Below the pieces are notes generated by a model that saw nothing but the letters and a program-made list of their open reading frames with translations, ran no database searches and was not told where the DNA came from. From a virus (taxonomy: Duplodnaviria > Heunggongvirae > Uroviricota > Caudoviricetes), in IMG/VR virus record IMGVR_UViG_2939127364_000003: DNA of 16,257 nt; one strand, written 5' to 3'. Position numbers and translations under genes: made by a program. Numbering within the stretch: position 1 is the first letter of the stretch; every line of letters begins with the position of its first letter. Positions 1,659-14,973 of the stretch are shown here, in pieces.

Positions 1659-4130
1659 TTAAGAATCAGCCTGACTCGGGATCAGTTTTTGCCAGATAAC
1701 TGAAACGTATTTTGCCTGGTAACGGGCGTCATCAAGTGCATTATGGCGCTCACCTTCGAATGGAATAGCCGTTCTGGCATCGAAGTCTATGGCTTTCCCC
1801 AGCTCAACGATTGTGCGTACATCGCGATCGTTGTAGTAACGCCACGGGCAGGGGATCCCCTGCCGTTCGTATGAACGGCGCAAAATCGTGTTGTCGAAGT
1901 TGGCTCCATTTCCCCAAACCTGAACAAAAAATTCACCGGAGTTTTCGTCGATAAATTCCCGCAATTGTAACAGTGCATCATCTAACGGGATTTCATCGGT
2001 CATAATGGCAGATTGCGCTTCGCGTGATTGCTTAAGCCACCATTTAATGGTGTTCCGATCAATGACTCCGCCAGCAGTTTCCAGATCGATAGTCTTACTA
2101 AATTCCGGTCCCATATCTCCGGTTTGCGGATCGAAAAATATTGCACCTATTGAGATGATCGGGGCATCAGGATTTTTTCCCATGGTTTCAAGGTCGATCA
2201 TTAGATGGTCACACGTCCTGCTGGTGGATGTGATTTCGTGATGACCGTTCACCTTAATTGAGTGATCTGCCGTCTCGCCAGTTTCATTATCGCTATTGTG
2301 ATGCTGATTGCCGCCAGTGTTCTCCTTGTGTGGATGTTCAGCGCCTTCCATTTCCTCCGGATCATCTTCCTGAACTTCAACCTGATATTCTTCATCGAAT
2401 GTTTCTTGATATGTTGCGTCGCCCATCACCGCGCCACAATCAGGGCAGTTGCCGCCGCCGGTCTGACCGCAGGCGGTGCAGACTTTTTCCACTTCCTGTT
2501 GCGCCACTGGTTCAGGCTGTTTCGTTTCTGGCTCGTTTTGTAACGCATTTGTGCTGTTTTGTTCCGCTTTTTGGTAGTTCCGTTCCGATTTATGCTGGTT
2601 CTGGTTCACAGAATCGCGGGTCTGGATCCCCTTAACCCATTTCGGATCATTCGGGTCACTAATCCCTTCAACAAATTCACCACGTGATGCAGCAAGCAAC
2701 TTATCGGCGTCAGGCTGGCTGATATTGGCTGCCTGCATAATTTTGTTTACTTCGTCAGCGGTAACTTTTATCGGCTCTGGTTGTTCTGAATCTTCAGCGG
2801 TATCTACATTTTGCGGTAAGCCCGTGTATGTGCCATTTTTTCGGGCAAAATATTCTTCTTTTGTGATTTCAGTGGCGCCAGCAGCCAGTGCCTTATCCAG
2901 ACCAGAAAGTTTGTTTGCGCGACCGTATTTTTCTCCGTCCTTATCTGCGAAGAGGAAATAGAACGGCCCCTCACGCTCTACAGATGGTTCAGCTTCCGGC
3001 GCGGTTTCATTTTTTGGGATATCAGATACCTCAGTTTCCACTGCATCAGTTTGTGTTTCTGATGACTGGAGAACATCAACAGTGCCCAGGTCTGTTTCTT
3101 CATTCTCAAACACGCCCTTTGTCGTCAGGTATTCGCAGATATATTTGTTCAGTGCTATGGGATCTTTGTGAATGTCGATCGGACGCTCACGGACAAGGCC
3201 AAAAATAGTCTGGCGGTCGTAGCGAAGGGCATCAGGCTGTTTGCGCATTGATGCCGAGATACGCTTCCAGTCTTCGCGGTCGTTGTCGATAACTTCTTTT
3301 TTTGCCCAGCGATGGATGCTGCCGTCAATGTTTCCGGCATCCACATCACCAGGCCAGAGAGCGTAGGCCAGTTCGTCATCCAGTGTTTTCCATGTCTGCT
3401 TGTATTCGCGATGAATGGCAGCAATGACCGGGCTGATTTTTCCTGTTGAATTTTCAGTGTACTGTTGATTGGCTCTGGCGCGGGCGAGATCAACAACAGA
3501 CGTGTATTTTCCGGTTTCCTTGCGTTCACCTTCGCGACGTTTTTTCCAGATGCGCATCTCTGCCTGAATTTCGGGCCATTTAGCACCAGGAATACATTTA
3601 TGCTTAACCCACCCAATGGCGTGCAACTTAAGCTCCGGATACATGGCGTTAACTTCTGGCATTTTCATCAACGCTTCAACGATATGTCCGTCGAATGTTG
3701 CCATGTCTTCCTGCAACAATTCCTGTGCGCTAATAACCATATCAACGGTGATGTTTTCACATGTGTCGAACTTAACCATGACAGCGTTCTGTACTTCAGG
3801 GGCCAGCTTGTCAAAAGTGACGTTCATCGGATCGGATTCAGTCTCAACCGGGACAAAAGAAGCAGACTCCTCATCCCAGCGGTTTTCCTGCATATATTCA
3901 GCATCCCATGAATCGAGGGCAGGGCGGGGTATGCCAGGTTTATCCTCGCAGACAATAAATTTATAAGCGCAGTCCTGAGCAGCCGGATAATGTTCCAGGA
4001 ACTGCCAGTGAAATTTTGCTCGAGCACGGCGTTCGTCGCCAGCTTCAATGGCTGTGGCTACAGCCACAGCGCCTTCTTCCCTTGTTGCCAGTTCGTCAGG
4101 AATAGCGGCGCAAATAAAGACTTTACTCAT
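1659..4130 (-). CDS. ydfE: RecE-like prophage exonuclease (YdfE-like, 823 aa) with a central CxxC...CxxC zinc-ribbon and a C-terminal DnaQ-like DEDDh 3'-5' exonuclease domain
   Basis: Long intact ORF. Central segment (DKLLAASRGEFVEGISDPNDPKWVKGIQTRD ... CTACGQTGGGNCPDCG) matches what I remember of Rac RecE. C-terminus carries DEDDh motifs (MIDLETMG as Exo I, HNALDDARY as Exo III). Position between xis and ydfD matches the Qin layout. Confidence 0.85.
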   Translation of the reverse strand: MSKVFICAAIPDELATREEGAVAVATAIEAGDERRARAKFHWQFLEHYPAAQDCAYKFIVCEDKPGIPRPALDSWDAEYMQENRWDEESASFVPVETESDPMNVTFDKLAPEVQNAVMVKFDTCENITVDMVISAQELLQEDMATFDGHIVEALMKMPEVNAMYPELKLHAIGWVKHKCIPGAKWPEIQAEMRIWKKRREGERKETGKYTSVVDLARARANQQYTENSTGKISPVIAAIHREYKQTWKTLDDELAYALWPGDVDAGNIDGSIHRWAKKEVIDNDREDWKRISASMRKQPDALRYDRQTIFGLVRERPIDIHKDPIALNKYICEYLTTKGVFENEETDLGTVDVLQSSETQTDAVETEVSDIPKNETAPEAEPSVEREGPFYFLFADKDGEKYGRANKLSGLDKALAAGATEITKEEYFARKNGTYTGLPQNVDTAEDSEQPEPIKVTADEVNKIMQAANISQPDADKLLAASRGEFVEGISDPNDPKWVKGIQTRDSVNQNQHKSERNYQKAEQNSTNALQNEPETKQPEPVAQQEVEKVCTACGQTGGGNCPDCGAVMGDATYQETFDEEYQVEVQEDDPEEMEGAEHPHKENTGGNQHHNSDNETGETADHSIKVNGHHEITSTSRTCDHLMIDLETMGKNPDAPIISIGAIFFDPQTGDMGPEFSKTIDLETAGGVIDRNTIKWWLKQSREAQSAIMTDEIPLDDALLQLREFIDENSGEFFVQVWGNGANFDNTILRRSYERQGIPCPWRYYNDRDVRTIVELGKAIDFDARTAIPFEGERHNALDDARYQAKYVSVIWQKLIPSQADS

Positions 4131-4223: not shown

Positions 4224-4415
4224 TTAAAGACCTGCCGGGATTTCGATATTATCCTGGTGAATAACTTTATCGACCGGGTAACAGTTACCGGGAATTTTCT
4301 GTTCGGTTGCTGCAGTCATACACTCCTGCATTGTCCTGTGAACACTGACTGCAATATCAACTGGCTCTCCGGAAACAAGAAAAACTGTCAGAACAAGCGC
4401 AAATGCTGAATTCAT
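4224..4415 (-). CDS. ydfD: YdfD-like small protein (63 aa; Qin YdfD is reported to cause lysis when overexpressed), start taken at internal Met MNSAF
   Basis: ORF with hydrophobic N-terminal segment (MNSAFALVLTVFLVSGEPV). Its ATG overlaps the dicB stop in an ATGA motif (4412-4415), suggesting translational coupling. Matches remembered YdfD. Confidence 0.65.
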   Translation of the reverse strand: MNSAFALVLTVFLVSGEPVDIAVSVHRTMQECMTAATEQKIPGNCYPVDKVIHQDNIEIPAGL

Positions 4416-4600
4416 TGTGCACATCCTTTTGGCATCAGACGTAAACGAGCCAGCATTGAAACAATGCATATTTTATTTAATAGCTCCCGTTCTTGTTTTC
4501 TCTTGTTAATGGCATCTTCAGTAAATACAGGGTTACTGATAGTGACACCAATTTCAAAACAACCTTCAGACGTATTAACGTTTGGTAATAACGTTTTCAT
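4412..4600 (-). CDS. dicB: DicB cell-division inhibitor (62 aa)
   Basis: Translation from the internal Met gives MKTLLPNVNTSEGCFEIGVTISNPVFTEDAINKRKQERELLNKICIVSMLARLRLMPKGCAQ, matching remembered DicB. GAGGA Shine-Dalgarno 9 nt upstream. Lies directly downstream of DicF. Confidence 0.85.
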   Translation of the reverse strand: MKTLLPNVNTSEGCFEIGVTISNPVFTEDAINKRKQERELLNKICIVSMLARLRLMPKGCAQ

Positions 4601-4770: not shown

Positions 4771-4827
4771 AAAACGGCGGCAGAGCAGTCACGGAGTAAA
4801 ACTGATACCGCCAAACGTCACCAGAAA
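4771..4827 (-). ncRNA. dicF: DicF small regulatory RNA (ends approximate)
   Basis: Minus strand reads TTTCTGGTGACGTTTGGCGGTATCAGTTTTACTCCGTGACTGCTCTGCCGCCGTTTTT, matching remembered DicF including the 3' GC stem and T-run. Located between the upstream operon gene and dicB as in Qin. Confidence 0.8.
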
Positions 4828-5102: not shown

Positions 5103-5303
5103 ATGACTAAAGAAGAATTTGTCTCTTATATTTTTGATAAAACGGTTGAAATGTATGCCGCTACTTACGGGTCCTGTAATCCTCTGAATAAACCAGAGGG
5201 GAAAGATGATTTCGACAAAATTTACCGCTTCTTGGAGGACCGCTATATCAAAAGGTTAGAGGACGCAGGGATCAAATCCCCAGTGAAGTCACCATTGTCC
5301 TGA
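5103..5303 (+). CDS. Hypothetical 66-aa protein on the opposite strand inside the dicB operon
   Basis: ATG at 5103 preceded by AAGGAA with a 6-nt spacer. Translation MTKEEFVSYIFDKTVEMYAATYGSCNPLNKPEGKDDFDKIYRFLEDRYIKRLEDAGIKSPVKSPLS is of normal complexity. 3' end overlaps the convergent 5272-5649 gene by 32 nt. No family recognised. Confidence 0.4.
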   Translation: MTKEEFVSYIFDKTVEMYAATYGSCNPLNKPEGKDDFDKIYRFLEDRYIKRLEDAGIKSPVKSPLS

Positions 5304-5649
5304 GAACTTGCAGGACGTCATGATCGTAACTTCCATCCAAACCGCGACGGCAAATTGCTTCTCGTATTACCGGAAGCAGTTCGCTGGAAATCTCGGTGCA
5401 TATTTCACCTGCTAATACGCCTGGCTCAAGTGAGAATATTGGTGAACTTACGGTCTTGGTCTCGACAGTTTCAGAGTCAGTGCCAACATTATAAAGCTCA
5501 ACGAAAGCGGTCTTGATTTTCCGGGCCAGATCTTTTGCTGGCTCGCTTGCAATATCTTTCCCGATTTCTCGCAGCACAGAATGCAATGTATGAGCTGCTG
5601 TTTTCTGTACATCAGACGGTAAATCTTTAAATTCCATCGTCAGCCTCAT
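5272..5649 (-). CDS. Hypothetical protein (125 aa from ATG 5649, or 121 aa from ATG 5637) in the position of Qin ydfB/ydfC
   Basis: ATG at 5649 overlaps the ydfA-like stop (TGATG, 1-nt overlap). The alternative ATG at 5637 has a GAGG 6 nt upstream. Protein is of normal complexity and I do not recognise it. Confidence 0.6.
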   Translation of the reverse strand: MRLTMEFKDLPSDVQKTAAHTLHSVLREIGKDIASEPAKDLARKIKTAFVELYNVGTDSETVETKTVSSPIFSLEPGVLAGEICTEISSELLPVIREAICRRGLDGSYDHDVLQVLRTMVTSLGI

Positions 5650-5801
5650 CAGTCAGTGTTTCTGGCTAACCAGCAACGCGCGCCAGATTCGGTTTTAAAC
5701 GTTTTGCTTTTGGTATATGTCATCGCGGTGAACGTACCGTCCTGGTTGGGGAACACGCCACATACCAGAGATTCGCTGTTGCCAAGATCGATAGTATCCA
5801 T
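5649..5801 (-). CDS. ydfA: YdfA-like small protein (50 aa)
   Basis: Internal-Met translation MDTIDLGNSESLVCGVFPNQDGTFTAMTYTKSKTFKTESGARCWLARNTD matches remembered Qin YdfA. GAGG 7 nt upstream. First gene downstream of dicA on the same strand. Confidence 0.7.
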   Translation of the reverse strand: MDTIDLGNSESLVCGVFPNQDGTFTAMTYTKSKTFKTESGARCWLARNTD

Positions 5802-5877
5802 GCTGACCTCATTTCCCCTTAACGCCGGGGTAGCGGAACTGTTTGCTGAGAACACCGTGCGGTGTGTTGATGGAGGT

Positions 5878-5930
5878 AATTTAGTTTTCTCATTATTTTT
5901 CGTCAAGGTTTTTTGATGAGAAAACTCAAG
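5878..5930 (-). promoter_or_regulatory. Putative dicB-operon promoter with DicA-operator-like sites
   Basis: On the minus strand TTGACG (complement of 5901-5906), a 17-nt spacer, then TAAATT (complement of 5878-5883). Imperfect palindrome GATGAGAAAACTCAAG at 5915-5930 just upstream, and a further TGAGAAAACT half-site inside the spacer. Confidence 0.45.
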
Positions 5931-5993
5931 TATTGGCGCAAGATAAAGCCAATACATTGAAATGTAAGGCTTTAAAATTTTGTGAAGGGATGA

Positions 5994-6401
5994 TTATTGA
6001 TGCTTGTTGCGTTTGCGAGCCTCTAATAGCTCGGTGAACAGGCGATTAAAATTCTCAACGCGGGCGCGGAGTTCGCTGAGTTGTGCTTGTTGCTCTGATT
6101 TAGGAAGTGCGCGATACAAACGCAGCATCTCTAACTCATCTTCCGATAAGTCTAAGGCACTATCGAGTGAAACAGGGGGAGCTGGTGTTTTGTCCTCGTC
6201 GCCAAACAGTATCCAGGTTGGTGAACATTGCAATACCTCGGCGAGGCGATGCAAATTTTGCCCACGCGGGGCTGTATGGTCACTTTCCCATAATGAAATT
6301 GATGAGCCAGATACGCCAGCAGCTTTGCTTAAACCGTTTTGACTTAAGCCTACCTGCTTACGTCTTTCTCTAATGCGTTGACCTAAAGTTTTCTCGTTCA
6401 T
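5994..6401 (-). CDS. dicA: DicA-like HTH (XRE-family) repressor, 135 aa from internal Met MNEKTLGQ
   Basis: HTH region (QRIRERRKQVGLSQNGLSKAAGVSGSSISLWE) and C-terminal segment LQCSPTWILFGDEDK...RARVENFNRLFTELLEARKR match remembered DicA. Divergent from a Cro-like gene. Confidence 0.85.
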   Translation of the reverse strand: MNEKTLGQRIRERRKQVGLSQNGLSKAAGVSGSSISLWESDHTAPRGQNLHRLAEVLQCSPTWILFGDEDKTPAPPVSLDSALDLSEDELEMLRLYRALPKSEQQAQLSELRARVENFNRLFTELLEARKRNKHQ

Positions 6402-6422
6402 ATTTAGATATCTTAATAACCC

Positions 6423-6466
6423 TTGACTTGAGATTCCTTGAGTGATTAGCATTGAGAAAACTCAAT
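6423..6466 (+). promoter_or_regulatory. dicA-dicC divergent control region with a perfect 16-bp palindrome ATTGAGAAAACTCAAT (6451-6466)
   Basis: TTGACT at 6423-6428, about 18-nt spacer, TAGCAT-like -10, with the palindrome over the predicted dicC start region. Repeated TTGAG half-sites at about 10-bp spacing. Same motif as the site upstream of the dicB-operon promoter. Confidence 0.5.
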
Positions 6467-6478
6467 ATTGGAGGTGCG

Positions 6479-6706
6479 ATGTTTAAATCAGACGTAATTA
6501 ATTTTTACGGTACGAAAGCCAAAGTAGCGAAAGCTGCTGGCGTTGACCCATCTGCTGTTTCTCAATGGCAAGAGCTGGTTCCTGAAGGTCGCGCGATGCG
6601 TCTACAGGAGGCATCTGGCGGGGAGCTTCTGTATGATCCCAAGGTTTATGACGAATATCGTAAGACGAAGCGGGCGGGGCGGTTGAACAATGAAAATCAC
6701 TCCTGA
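6479..6706 (+). CDS. dicC: DicC-like Cro-type regulator (75 aa, start at internal ATG 6479)
   Basis: GGAGG at 6470-6474 four nt before ATG 6479. C-terminal VPEGRAMRLQEASGGELLYDPKVYDEYRKTKRAGRLNNENHS matches remembered DicC. Divergent from dicA. Confidence 0.8.
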   Translation: MFKSDVINFYGTKAKVAKAAGVDPSAVSQWQELVPEGRAMRLQEASGGELLYDPKVYDEYRKTKRAGRLNNENHS

Positions 6707-6948
6707 ACAGGCTCGTGAGGCTCTGGATGCCTGGATATGTCGACCAGGAATGACACAGGAGCAGGCGACGATATTAATCACTGAAGCATTCTGGGCTTTG
6801 AAAGAGCGCCCGAACATCGATGTTCAGCGTGTCACAGATGAAGGTGGCGCGGTTGATCAGCGAGCGCTTGGCGTTAATCGAGTGAAGATATTCGAACGCT
6901 GGAAGGCTATCGACACCAGGGATAAGCGTGAAAAGTTCACGGCGCTAG

Positions 6949-6971
<23 letters not shown>
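6690..6971 (+). CDS. YdfX-like hypothetical protein, 3' end interrupted by IS5 (native coding sequence ends at 6948; last 8 codons are IS5-derived)
   Basis: ORF overlaps the dicC 3' end by 17 nt. Reading frame runs into the IS5 left inverted repeat and stops at 6969-6971. If IS5 is removed the frame would continue about 6 codons into the sequence after 8144. Confidence 0.55.
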
Positions 6972-8143
<1,172 letters not shown>

Positions 8144-9244: not shown

Positions 9245-9501
9245 ATACAGCGAACTCCATTGGTTTAGTTGGATATTTACTGTGCTGGACAAAACGGTTT
9301 GCGGGGAAATCTTAGTTAAGTAGAATGACTGCGGGTGCTTGAGGCTATCTGCCTCGGGCACGAACACCAACGGCAGGTAGAGAAAAGCCCCAGTTAACAT
9401 TACGCGTCCTGCAAGACGCTTAACATTAATCTGAGGCCAATTTCATGCTAGACACATGTAGGTTAGCCTCTTACGTGCCGAAAGGCAAGGAGAAGCAGGC
9501 T

Positions 9502-9657
9502 ATGAAGCAGCAAAAGGCGATGTTAATCGCCCTGATCGTCATCTGTTTAACCGTCATAGTGACGGCACTGGTAACGAGGAAAGACCTCTGCGAGGTACGA
9601 ATCCGAACCGGCCAGACGGAGGTCGCTGTCTTCACAGCTTACGAACCTGAGGAGTAA
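9502..9657 (+). CDS. hok: Hok/Gef-family type I toxin (51 aa); a 70-aa in-frame upstream extension begins at 9445
   Basis: MKQQKAMLIALIVICLTVIVTALVTRKDLCEVRIRTGQTEVAVFTAYEPEE matches the Hok/Gef family (remembered HokD/RelF). AAGGAG 9 nt upstream. Structured 3' region and terminator follow. Confidence 0.85.
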   Translation: MKQQKAMLIALIVICLTVIVTALVTRKDLCEVRIRTGQTEVAVFTAYEPEE

Positions 9658-12660: not shown

Positions 12661-13241
12661 TGGCATTCAGAATGAGTGAACAAGCACGGACCATAAAAAT
12701 TTATAATCTGCTGTCCGGAACTAATGAATTTATTGGTGAAGGTGATGCATATATTCCGCCTCATACAGGTCTGCCAGCAAACAGTACCGACATTGCACCG
12801 CCAGATATTCCAGCTGGCTTCGTGGCTGTTTTCAACAGTGATGAGTTATCGTGGCATCTCGTTGAAGATCATCGGGGTAAAACGGTTTATGACGTGGCTT
12901 CCGGCGACGCGTTATTTATTTCTGAACTCGGCTCATTACCGGAAAATGTCACCTGGTTATCCCCGGAAGGGGAGTTTCAGAAGTGGAACGGCACAGCCTG
13001 GGTGAAAGATGCAGAAGCAGAAAAACTATTCCGGATCCGGGAGGCGGAAGAAACAAAAAACAGCCTGATGCAGGCAGCGAATGAGCATATTGCGCCACTT
13101 CAGGATGCTGTAGATCTGGAAATCGCAACGGAGGAAGAAAACTCGTTGCTGGAAGCCTGGAAAAAGTATCGGGTGTTGCTGAACCGTGTTAATACAACAA
13201 CTGCACCGGATATTGAATGGCCAGTAGCACCTATAGGGTAA
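12660..13241 (+). CDS. tfa: Tail fibre assembly protein Tfa (193 aa)
   Basis: ATG overlaps the stf stop (TAATG). C-terminal [31 protein letters not shown] is the conserved Tfa end of lambdoid and Mu-like tail-fibre chaperones. Confidence 0.85.
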
Positions 13242-14685: not shown

Positions 14686-14973
14686 TCGTTTCGTGATATG
14701 CCGCAGAAACGTTGTATGCAATAACGTTCTGCGGTTGGCTGATGCACTTTCGAGAGTGTATTGAATAATTTCAAGCCGTTATTGTTTTTACGCGTAACAC
14801 CATGAAAAGACTGCTTATCTGTTGGGGTGTTTTTTGGGGCATATATGGGACAGAAATAGGCCACAGATAGATAGTAAGATCGAACTCAGGATGCTTTTGA
14901 AAAAATGTAACTATCTGAAAAAACCTAGAAAGCGCCAAGGAAACCACAGAATGAGAAAAAACATCTGTGAATT

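Follow-up and report, generated by a model that had tools for sequence, protein, structure and literature searches.

Candidate immunity-specific operators of a DicA-type repressor on both sides of dicA in a Qin-like lambdoid prophage

Copies of a short inverted repeat lie on both sides of the dicA repressor gene in a 16,257-base stretch of viral DNA (hereafter the window), which raises the question of which protein would read them and which promoters it would control. The original prediction was that three copies of the motif bracket dicA and that DicA, and possibly DicC, uses them to repress both the dicB operon and the divergent promoters. The comparisons described below indicate that the three TGAGAAAACTCA sites are very probably immunity-specific operators of the prophage's DicA-type repressor and, by analogy, also of the Cro-like DicC protein. 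The window belongs to a lambdoid, Qin-like E. coli prophage whose immunity cassette spans ~5870-6590. At a coverage of at least 80%, the region from 5600 to 6750 was found in 795 of 5,426 complete E. coli genomes (~15%).

Genes, promoters and operator copies around dicA

The identities proposed for dicA, dicC and the dicB operon were upheld by Pfam matches, by a match to the P22 c2 repressor and by the presence of ydfA-dicF-dicB downstream. The dicA-type gene (5994..6401, minus strand) encodes a repressor of 135 aa with a Pfam HTH_3 match and the recognition helix VSGSSISLWESD. Residues 1-72 of this protein align without gaps to P22 c2 (E 8e-16; 1adr and 2r1j, E ~1e-15), and its C-terminal half aligns with DicA of the K-12, BL21 and O157 types. 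No autocleavage domain was detected in DicA, as Pfam gave HTH families only and no S24 match over the 135 aa. The divergent dicC-type gene (6479..6706, plus strand) encodes a Cro-like protein of 75 aa that matches PF14549 P22_Cro (E 3e-16). The N-terminal HTH of DicC is type-specific, and the C-terminal half is common to other immunity types and near-identical to that of K-12 DicC.

A promoter scan covering 5600-6750 returned exactly two promoter-like sites, and these are the two that the motif copies overlap. One is the minus-strand promoter that had been predicted, TTGACG(5906)-17-TAAATT(5878), at 5878..5906. Downstream from it are ydfA (5649..5801, minus strand; Pfam DUF1391, E 4e-27), which is the first gene of the repressed operon, a 125-aa ORF taken from the ORF list (5272-5649), the DicF RNA (4775-4826), dicB (4412-4600) and ydfD (4224-4415), both read from the ORF list, and a large exonuclease gene (1659-4130). 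Because everything in this list, ydfA through the exonuclease gene, lies downstream from this promoter, we consider it to be the equivalent of K-12 dicBp and an analogue of PL. The other promoter, TTGACT(6423)-18-TAGCAT(6452), at 6423..6452 on the plus strand, is the dicCp equivalent and an analogue of PR. No promoter for dicA itself reached the threshold of the scan, in agreement with the remark that the dicA promoter of K-12 cannot readily be told from its sequence (PMC3441716). A hairpin just after the dicA stop codon (5944..5974, minus strand; fold -11.3 kcal/mol, z -3.5) is probably a weak terminator for dicA, setting the gene apart from dicBp, although the terminator scan gave no call at this position. 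The block CAA-ACATTGAAA of the hairpin region was invariant in alignment A1, in which the Buttiauxella loci were compared.

The motif copies were found at the positions and with the sequences that had been claimed for them. Exact copies of TGAGAAAACTCA are present at 5917-5928 and 6453-6464; a minus-strand copy, TGAGAAAACTAA, occurs at 5881-5892 with one mismatch (11 of 12 bases). A scan of the entire window with at most one mismatch yielded these three sites against 0.10 expected in 16,257 bases, and none of 200 shuffled sequences reached three. The longer sequences ATTGAGAAAACTCAAT (6451-6466) and GATGAGAAAACTCAAG (5915-5930) share the exact 13-mer TGAGAAAACTCAA at 6453-6465 and 5917-5929, respectively. 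With at most two mismatches, four window-wide matches to TGAGAAAACTCA were found against 1.78 expected, a number that is not significant alone. The arms-only pattern TTGAG-N4-CTCAA, also with at most two mismatches, was likewise not significant window-wide, giving eight matches against 8.65 expected; five of the eight lie in the short pieces of non-coding DNA on the two sides of dicA, and this clustering is the sole informative part of the arms-only scan. Two further candidates were rejected. A match with two mismatches at 14952-14963 is compatible with chance given the 1.78 expected, and AACGAGAAAACT at 6387-6398, considered as a fourth copy, corresponds to dicA codons 2-5 (N-E-K-T) and is a by-product of coding, as the Buttiauxella proteins read MNEMT there.

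The main operator, O_C (ATTGAG-AAAA-CTCAAT, 6451..6466), begins 27-29 nt past the start of the dicCp -35. It overlaps the dicC -10 hexamer TAGCAT (6447-6452) by the final 2 nt and also covers the expected transcription start, transcription starts being predicted positions throughout. It had been described as a perfect 16-bp palindrome; it is instead a 6-4-6 inverted repeat whose AAAA centre is asymmetric and not self-complementary. O_B2 (GATGAG-AAAA-CTCAAG, 5915..5930) belongs to the dicB-operon promoter and is found upstream of its -35, at a distance of 8 nt. O_B1 (AATGAG-AAAA-CTAAAT on the minus strand, 5879..5894) is an inverse copy that extends over the spacer of the same promoter and over most of its -10 (TAAATT). 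What had been called a third half-site within that spacer is thus a full site in the opposite orientation. The centres of O_B1 and O_B2 are 36 bp apart. One half of O_B1 is also constrained by the -10 hexamer, independently of any repressor.

The count of three was correct as far as it went, but two degenerate sites in the dicA-dicC spacer had been overlooked. The first, ATTTAG-ATAT-CTTAAT (ATTTAGATATCTTAAT, 6402..6417), is the Oa/OR3 equivalent; it abuts the dicA start codon and overlaps a -10-like TAAGAT on the minus strand (6410-6415). Of its 12 arm positions, 10 agree with O_C, and the two that do not occupy the same place within the half-site. The second, ACTTGAG-ATTC-CTTGAGT (ACTTGAGATTCCTTGAGT, 6426..6443), is the Om/OR2 equivalent and is located between the -35 and -10 of dicCp. 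It has a single good half-site and 8 of 12 agreeing arm bases.

Conservation and covariation of the sites

The DicA proteins of B. ferragutiae and B. gaviniae (Buttiauxella) are 74-76% identical to the one in the window and have the helix VSDSSISLWESD. In these loci TTAGTTTTCTC (the O_B1 core), TGAGAAAACTCA and ATTGAGAAAACTCA are invariant amid bases, both intervening and adjacent, that have diverged; in the 6426-6443 site the left TGAG alone is kept. For viral contigs, a scan with the 14-mer TTGAGAAAACTCAA, which gave at least 120 mostly single matches, was judged too short and was replaced by a 21-base paired pattern. Contigs were picked by the left pair only (TAGTTTTCTC-N22-30-GAGAAAACTCA), such that conservation of O_B1 and O_B2 in this set is partly by construction. 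An exact third copy was present 567-572 nt away in 109 of the 110 contigs with enough flanking DNA, and among the sequences listed every distinct repressor contained a helix of the form VS[GDY]S[ST]ISLWE[SA]D. O_C was 97% conserved over 76 distinct sequences, and conservation of the two bases on either side fell to 50-60%. The degenerate 6402-6417 site was 99.6% conserved in 76 relatives. The repressor is 100% identical over its 135 aa to that of phages mEp460_ev081 and HannyBb, and the mEp460 locus contains the same three sites.

We also compared 12 loci that included the E. coli K-12, BL21 and O157 types as well as Citrobacter, Yersinia, Symbiopectobacterium and Rosenbergiella. DicA is of equal length in the seven E. 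coli loci, and the more distant homologues are 129-135 aa long. A palindrome begins 27-29 nt past the start of the dicCp -35 in 10 of the 12 loci; for the remaining two, L002 and L017, the 7-4-7 inverted repeat that was picked automatically as the best was off-frame (offsets 21 and 24), and their rows in the matrix described below are less clean. The heteroimmune loci also have two related sites at dicBp, one in the spacer/-10 and the other just upstream of the -35. In 9 of the 12 loci, including K-12, BL21 and O157, a distance of 34-36 bp separates the centres of these sites. In the K-12-type locus, Oc is at the same offset and is accompanied by two Oc-like dicBp sites with centres 35 bp apart.

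Position is shared among types, and sequence is not. The dicCp palindrome is CATTGAG-AAAA-CTCAATA in the window type, TGTTAGT-TATG-ACTAACA in the K-12 type, TGTTAGA-AAAG-TCTAACA in the BL21 type and CCTTAGG-AAAA-TCTAAGG in the O157 type. In a cross-match matrix of the 12 loci, the dicCp palindrome of each type best matched the dicBp pair of its own group. Scores in the window's group were 24-32 of 36 within the group versus 17-25 against other groups, and the score within the K-12 group was 27. The helix SGSSISLWES pairs with TTGAG, whereas SHVSVSQWER and AHVTISQWER pair with TTAG. The suggestion that these operators fit immunity specificity was thus borne out at the level of sequence, in that the motif varies with the recognition helix across heteroimmune relatives, is constant within a type and covaries with the repressor type. 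Same-type loci keep the motif, but heteroimmune dicA-dicC regions lack its exact form. The original prediction had taken absence of the motif from other dicA-dicC regions as evidence against it, and that wording needs to be revised, because immunity-specific operators predict such absence.

The boundaries of the cassette are in keeping with this pattern. The window and the BL21-type locus are 97-100% identical up to ~5869 and 93-100% identical from ~6590, whereas they are only 33-77% identical in between. The left edge of the swapped segment is just downstream of the dicBp -10 and the right edge is just after the DicC HTH; all of the operator sites are inside it and none is at a boundary. A swapped cassette of this shape is the classical lambdoid immunity region.

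Proposed mode of repression and alternative explanations

A DicA dimer would probably read the two outer half-sites (consensus ATTGAG) via its P22-c2-like helix-turn-helix. The central AAAA is probably uncontacted and would aid binding because it narrows the minor groove, as it does in the operators of the P22 repressor. The P22 repressor binds 18-bp sites in which the central 4 bp are uncontacted, and it prefers an A-tract centre, with a KD of 4.3 nM versus 14.4 and 57.6 nM for other centres (PMC4267663). Since the P22 repressor does best on an A-tract, the asymmetric AAAA centre is expected for a P22-like fold and is no defect of the site. Occupancy of O_C would block RNA polymerase at the dicC promoter by occluding the -10 and the start, and it may also help the weak dicA promoter, an autoactivation proposed by analogy with K-12. 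Occupancy of O_B1 in the spacer and -10 and of O_B2 upstream of the -35 would shut the promoter of the ydfA-dicF-dicB operon, which encodes inhibitors of cell division as well as early genes for recombination. With a spacing of 36 bp (~3.4 helical turns), O_B1 and O_B2 would place the two dimers on different faces of the DNA, and simple cooperative binding is thus not obvious. DicC would share its operators with DicA, by analogy with K-12 and P22, and the sites presumably follow some order of affinity. The 6402-6417 site is in an OR3-like position, where DicC or excess DicA would lower dicA expression, and the dicA transcript may be leaderless.

Published work on K-12 agrees with much of this scheme. 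K-12 dicBp is repressed by DicA, and deletion of dicA led to 22-fold derepression, whereas deletion of dicC had no effect (PMC10448788). Operator sequences were described both in the K-12 dicA-dicC spacer and between dicA and dicBp (PMC10448788), and operators that bracket dicA are therefore an already published arrangement. K-12 Oc is a 20-bp inverted repeat, TTGTTAGTCATAACTAACAA, with arms TTGTTAGT-N4-ACTAACAA, that overlaps the dicC -10; it is bound by DicA in vivo, a single A-to-C change abolishes binding, and Oc-bound DicA was reported to turn dicC off and to aid dicA transcription (PMC3441716). The prediction that DicA represses the dicB operon and the divergent promoters accordingly receives support from the match in position to K-12, from covariation and from conservation. 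DicA binding in vivo was not seen at the neighboring predicted K-12 sites Om and Oa (PMC3441716), and for this reason the roles of the 6402-6417 and 6426-6443 sites are the weakest part of our proposal. K-12 DicA is also without a LexA-like cleavage domain, and induction in K-12 was shown to occur via an antirepressor or a flip of the switch (PMC10448788). As DicA in the window has no cleavage domain, induction by one of these routes would be expected here as well.

In an alternative that we consider improbable, DicA recognizes something else, and the reader of the sites is mainly or exclusively the Cro-like DicC or a host regulator. ChIP-seq of K-12 DicC gave its strongest signal at the dicA locus, with one inferred site on either side of dicA and the palindrome TT(A/C/T)G...C(G/A/T)AA, that is, TTNG...CNAA (PMC11430063). 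These peaks agree with the suggestion that DicC may bind the sites in addition to DicA, and they also speak for this alternative. Similarly, the N-terminal HTH of DicC varies with immunity type as the sites do, and the host factor YjdC was reported to repress the targets of DicA when that protein is lacking (PMC11430063). However, the loss of in vivo DicA binding to K-12 Oc upon one base change and the derepression of dicBp that followed deletion of dicA but not of dicC both argue for DicA as a reader of the sites. Repressor and Cro use common operators in lambdoid switches, and a host factor could not account for sites that change with phage immunity type.

It is very unlikely that the two left copies form an RNA or DNA hairpin that terminates or attenuates read-through from dicA rather than serving as protein-binding sites. 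The copies do form a 17-nt inverted repeat (5877-5893/5916-5932) that is 88% complementary, has 22 nt between its arms and is centred on the -35 hexamer, but any pair of palindromic operators makes an inverted repeat. The centres of the O157-type dicBp sites point the same way (AATAAC and AAAAAC), so that an extended hairpin is no feature of the family. Moreover, the arms are not followed by a T-run, the terminator scan found no terminator there, the separate 5944-5974 hairpin already follows the dicA stop codon, and a hairpin would leave unexplained why a third copy is present at the dicC promoter, 536 nt away. Least credible of all is that the repeats are chance matches or recombination leftovers at module boundaries: one repeated 13-mer within 16 kb is in itself no rare event (we estimate ~2 direct pairs) and the two-mismatch scan was not significant, yet no shuffled sequence reached three sites, the sites are within the cassette and away from its boundaries, they are kept across genera while their flanks diverge, and all three occur together in 109 of 110 contigs.

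The preferred reading is thus that the sites are operators of the DicA-type repressor. Together they would make up the operators of an immunity type, so far without characterisation, of the known DicA/DicC (P22 immC-like) switch. The current picture of how such a switch works is unchanged, and the sites are a real but ordinary feature. Their value is that they provide concrete candidate operators for an immunity type that is present in ~15% of the complete genomes of E. coli as well as in at least two records of phages (mEp460_ev081 and HannyBb), and that these operators would control dicF and dicB, inhibitors of host cell division. In addition, the matched repressor/operator sets from the heteroimmune relatives are a small natural data set on specificity change in P22-c2-like HTH proteins, which could help in the design of orthogonal repressors.

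We give a low probability to two larger interpretations, either of which would go further. In one, repressor-operator pairs that are orthogonal to each other but share a single fixed scaffold would form a natural series within the DicA family. The symmetric single-base change in the half-site (from P22 TTTAAG or the TTAG of other types to ATTGAG) may then track helix substitutions at positions 32, 33, 34, 37 and 40, and the residue equivalent to P22 N46, which is Arg here, may track the A-tract centre. In the other, the spacing of the left operators would reflect a repression geometry undescribed for lambda/P22; the 35-36 bp spacing around the -35 in most types compared could reflect, for example, a DicA oligomer that clamps the -35.

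Comparison with related phages, K-12 Qin and P22

Phages mEp460_ev081 and HannyBb, which have the identical repressor, are whole phage genomes, whereas the element in the window carries an IS5 in its ydaT-like gene and looks degraded. The literature on mEp460 consisted of mentions in prophage predictions, and no paper on the operators of mEp460 or HannyBb was found.

The locus resembles that of the K-12 Qin prophage in gene order (ydfA-...-dicF-dicB <- dicBp <- dicA <-> dicC -> ydaT-like), in having a DicA of 135 aa with a common C-terminal half, in a main operator that overlaps the dicC -10 at an equal offset from the -35, in two dicBp sites with centres 35-36 bp apart and in the design of the sites as inverted repeats about a 4-bp centre. 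The two differ in the recognition helix (VSGSSISLWESD here and ISHVSVSQWERG in K-12) and in the half-site (ATTGAG here, with an A-tract centre, and GTTAGT in K-12), and the ~5870-6590 cassette is just ~50-70% identical to its K-12 counterpart. Operator binding was assayed in the K-12 type, whereas the operators described here are candidates from sequence comparison.

The resemblance to P22 immC extends to both regulators, as the N-terminal domain of DicA aligns gap-free with that of c2 and the family of DicC is P22_Cro. Base for base, the stretch between dicA and dicC is colinear with P22 OR3, the -35 plus OR2, and OR1, and the -35 region of the dicCp equivalent is nearly identical to that of P22 PR. 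P22 OR3, which abuts the c2 start (AGTTAAGTCATCTTAAAT), corresponds to TATTTAGATATCTTAATA (6401-6418); OR2, a perfect palindrome in P22 (ACTAAAGATTCCTTTAGT), corresponds to the 6426-6443 site; and OR1 (ATTTAAGTGTTCTTTAAT) corresponds to CATTGAGAAAACTCAATA (6450-6467). In their 7-4-7 design the sites match the P22 operator, an 18-bp site of which the 4 bp at the centre are uncontacted (PMC4267663). P22 c2 is a protein of 216 aa (PMC10448788), whereas DicA in the window has 135 aa and the LexA-like cleavage domain is absent. The scans yielded just two sites at the left promoter, in contrast to the canonical triple operators of the OL type in lambda and P22. At the right, three positions in the window are colinear with P22 OR3, OR2 and OR1, and two consensus half-sites are kept in the OR1 equivalent only, the other sites agreeing at 10 and 8 of 12 arm bases. 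The operator has also changed symmetrically at the fifth base of the 18-mer, from P22 TTTAAG to ATTGAG here, and c2 helix residues 32, 33, 34, 37 and 40 are all replaced in DicA. These replacements fit the change in half-site, from which particular links between residues and bases may be suggested.

Hairpin and palindrome flanking the dicB operon promoter

A conserved minus-strand hairpin (5944-5974; -11.3 kcal/mol, z -3.5) lies directly 3′ of the dicA stop codon, and it is likely a weak terminator that separates the repressor gene from dicBp, the promoter of the ydfA-dicF-dicB operon. O157-type loci carry another hairpin at this position, with a T-run after it. The 5′ UTR of the dicB operon (5802-5870) contains a perfect 14-bp palindrome, ACACCGTGCGGTGT (5852-5865), which lies a short distance downstream of where dicBp is predicted to start transcription. 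Because this UTR is 97-100% identical between heteroimmune types, the palindrome was ruled out as an immunity operator. A possible role is that of a nut-like or processing element.

Prophage integrity and related loci

The IS5 transposase ORF (6981-7997) follows a ydaT-like ORF within the region 6690-7997. As this ORF encodes only 93 aa, compared with 173-183 aa in relatives, the ydaT-like gene appears to have been truncated by IS5 insertion, and the prophage looks degraded. Rfam matches to the sok antitoxin RNA of the hok/sok module and to IS009 RNA were found at 9333-9507 and 13003-13201.

This E. coli prophage region is also present in contigs labelled as 'Bacillota bacterium' (L008) and 'Veillonella parvula' (L009) MAGs, both of which encode a DicA 100% identical to that of the window; its presence there probably reflects binning contamination of the assemblies. 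More distant DicA homologues with the helix SSVSVFKWE were identified in Escherichia whittamii and Enterobacteriaceae LSJC7. The spacer layout differs at these two loci in that AACTTT/AAAGTT-like repeats replace the 7-4-7 palindromes, and these repeats may represent another operator design in the DicA family.

Near-palindrome at the dicA start codon

The near-palindrome ATTTAGATATCTTAAT (6402-6417) directly adjoins the dicA start codon. Its conservation was 99.6% among 76 relatives, and it was also found in a Citrobacter locus (L012) with a different DicA and main operator. The near-palindrome overlaps a -10-like TAAGAT situated 8 nt 5′ of the dicA ATG, a spacing which suggests that the dicA mRNA may be leaderless or almost leaderless. 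In P22, OR3, the immC operator that abuts the c2 start, is colinear with this near-palindrome.
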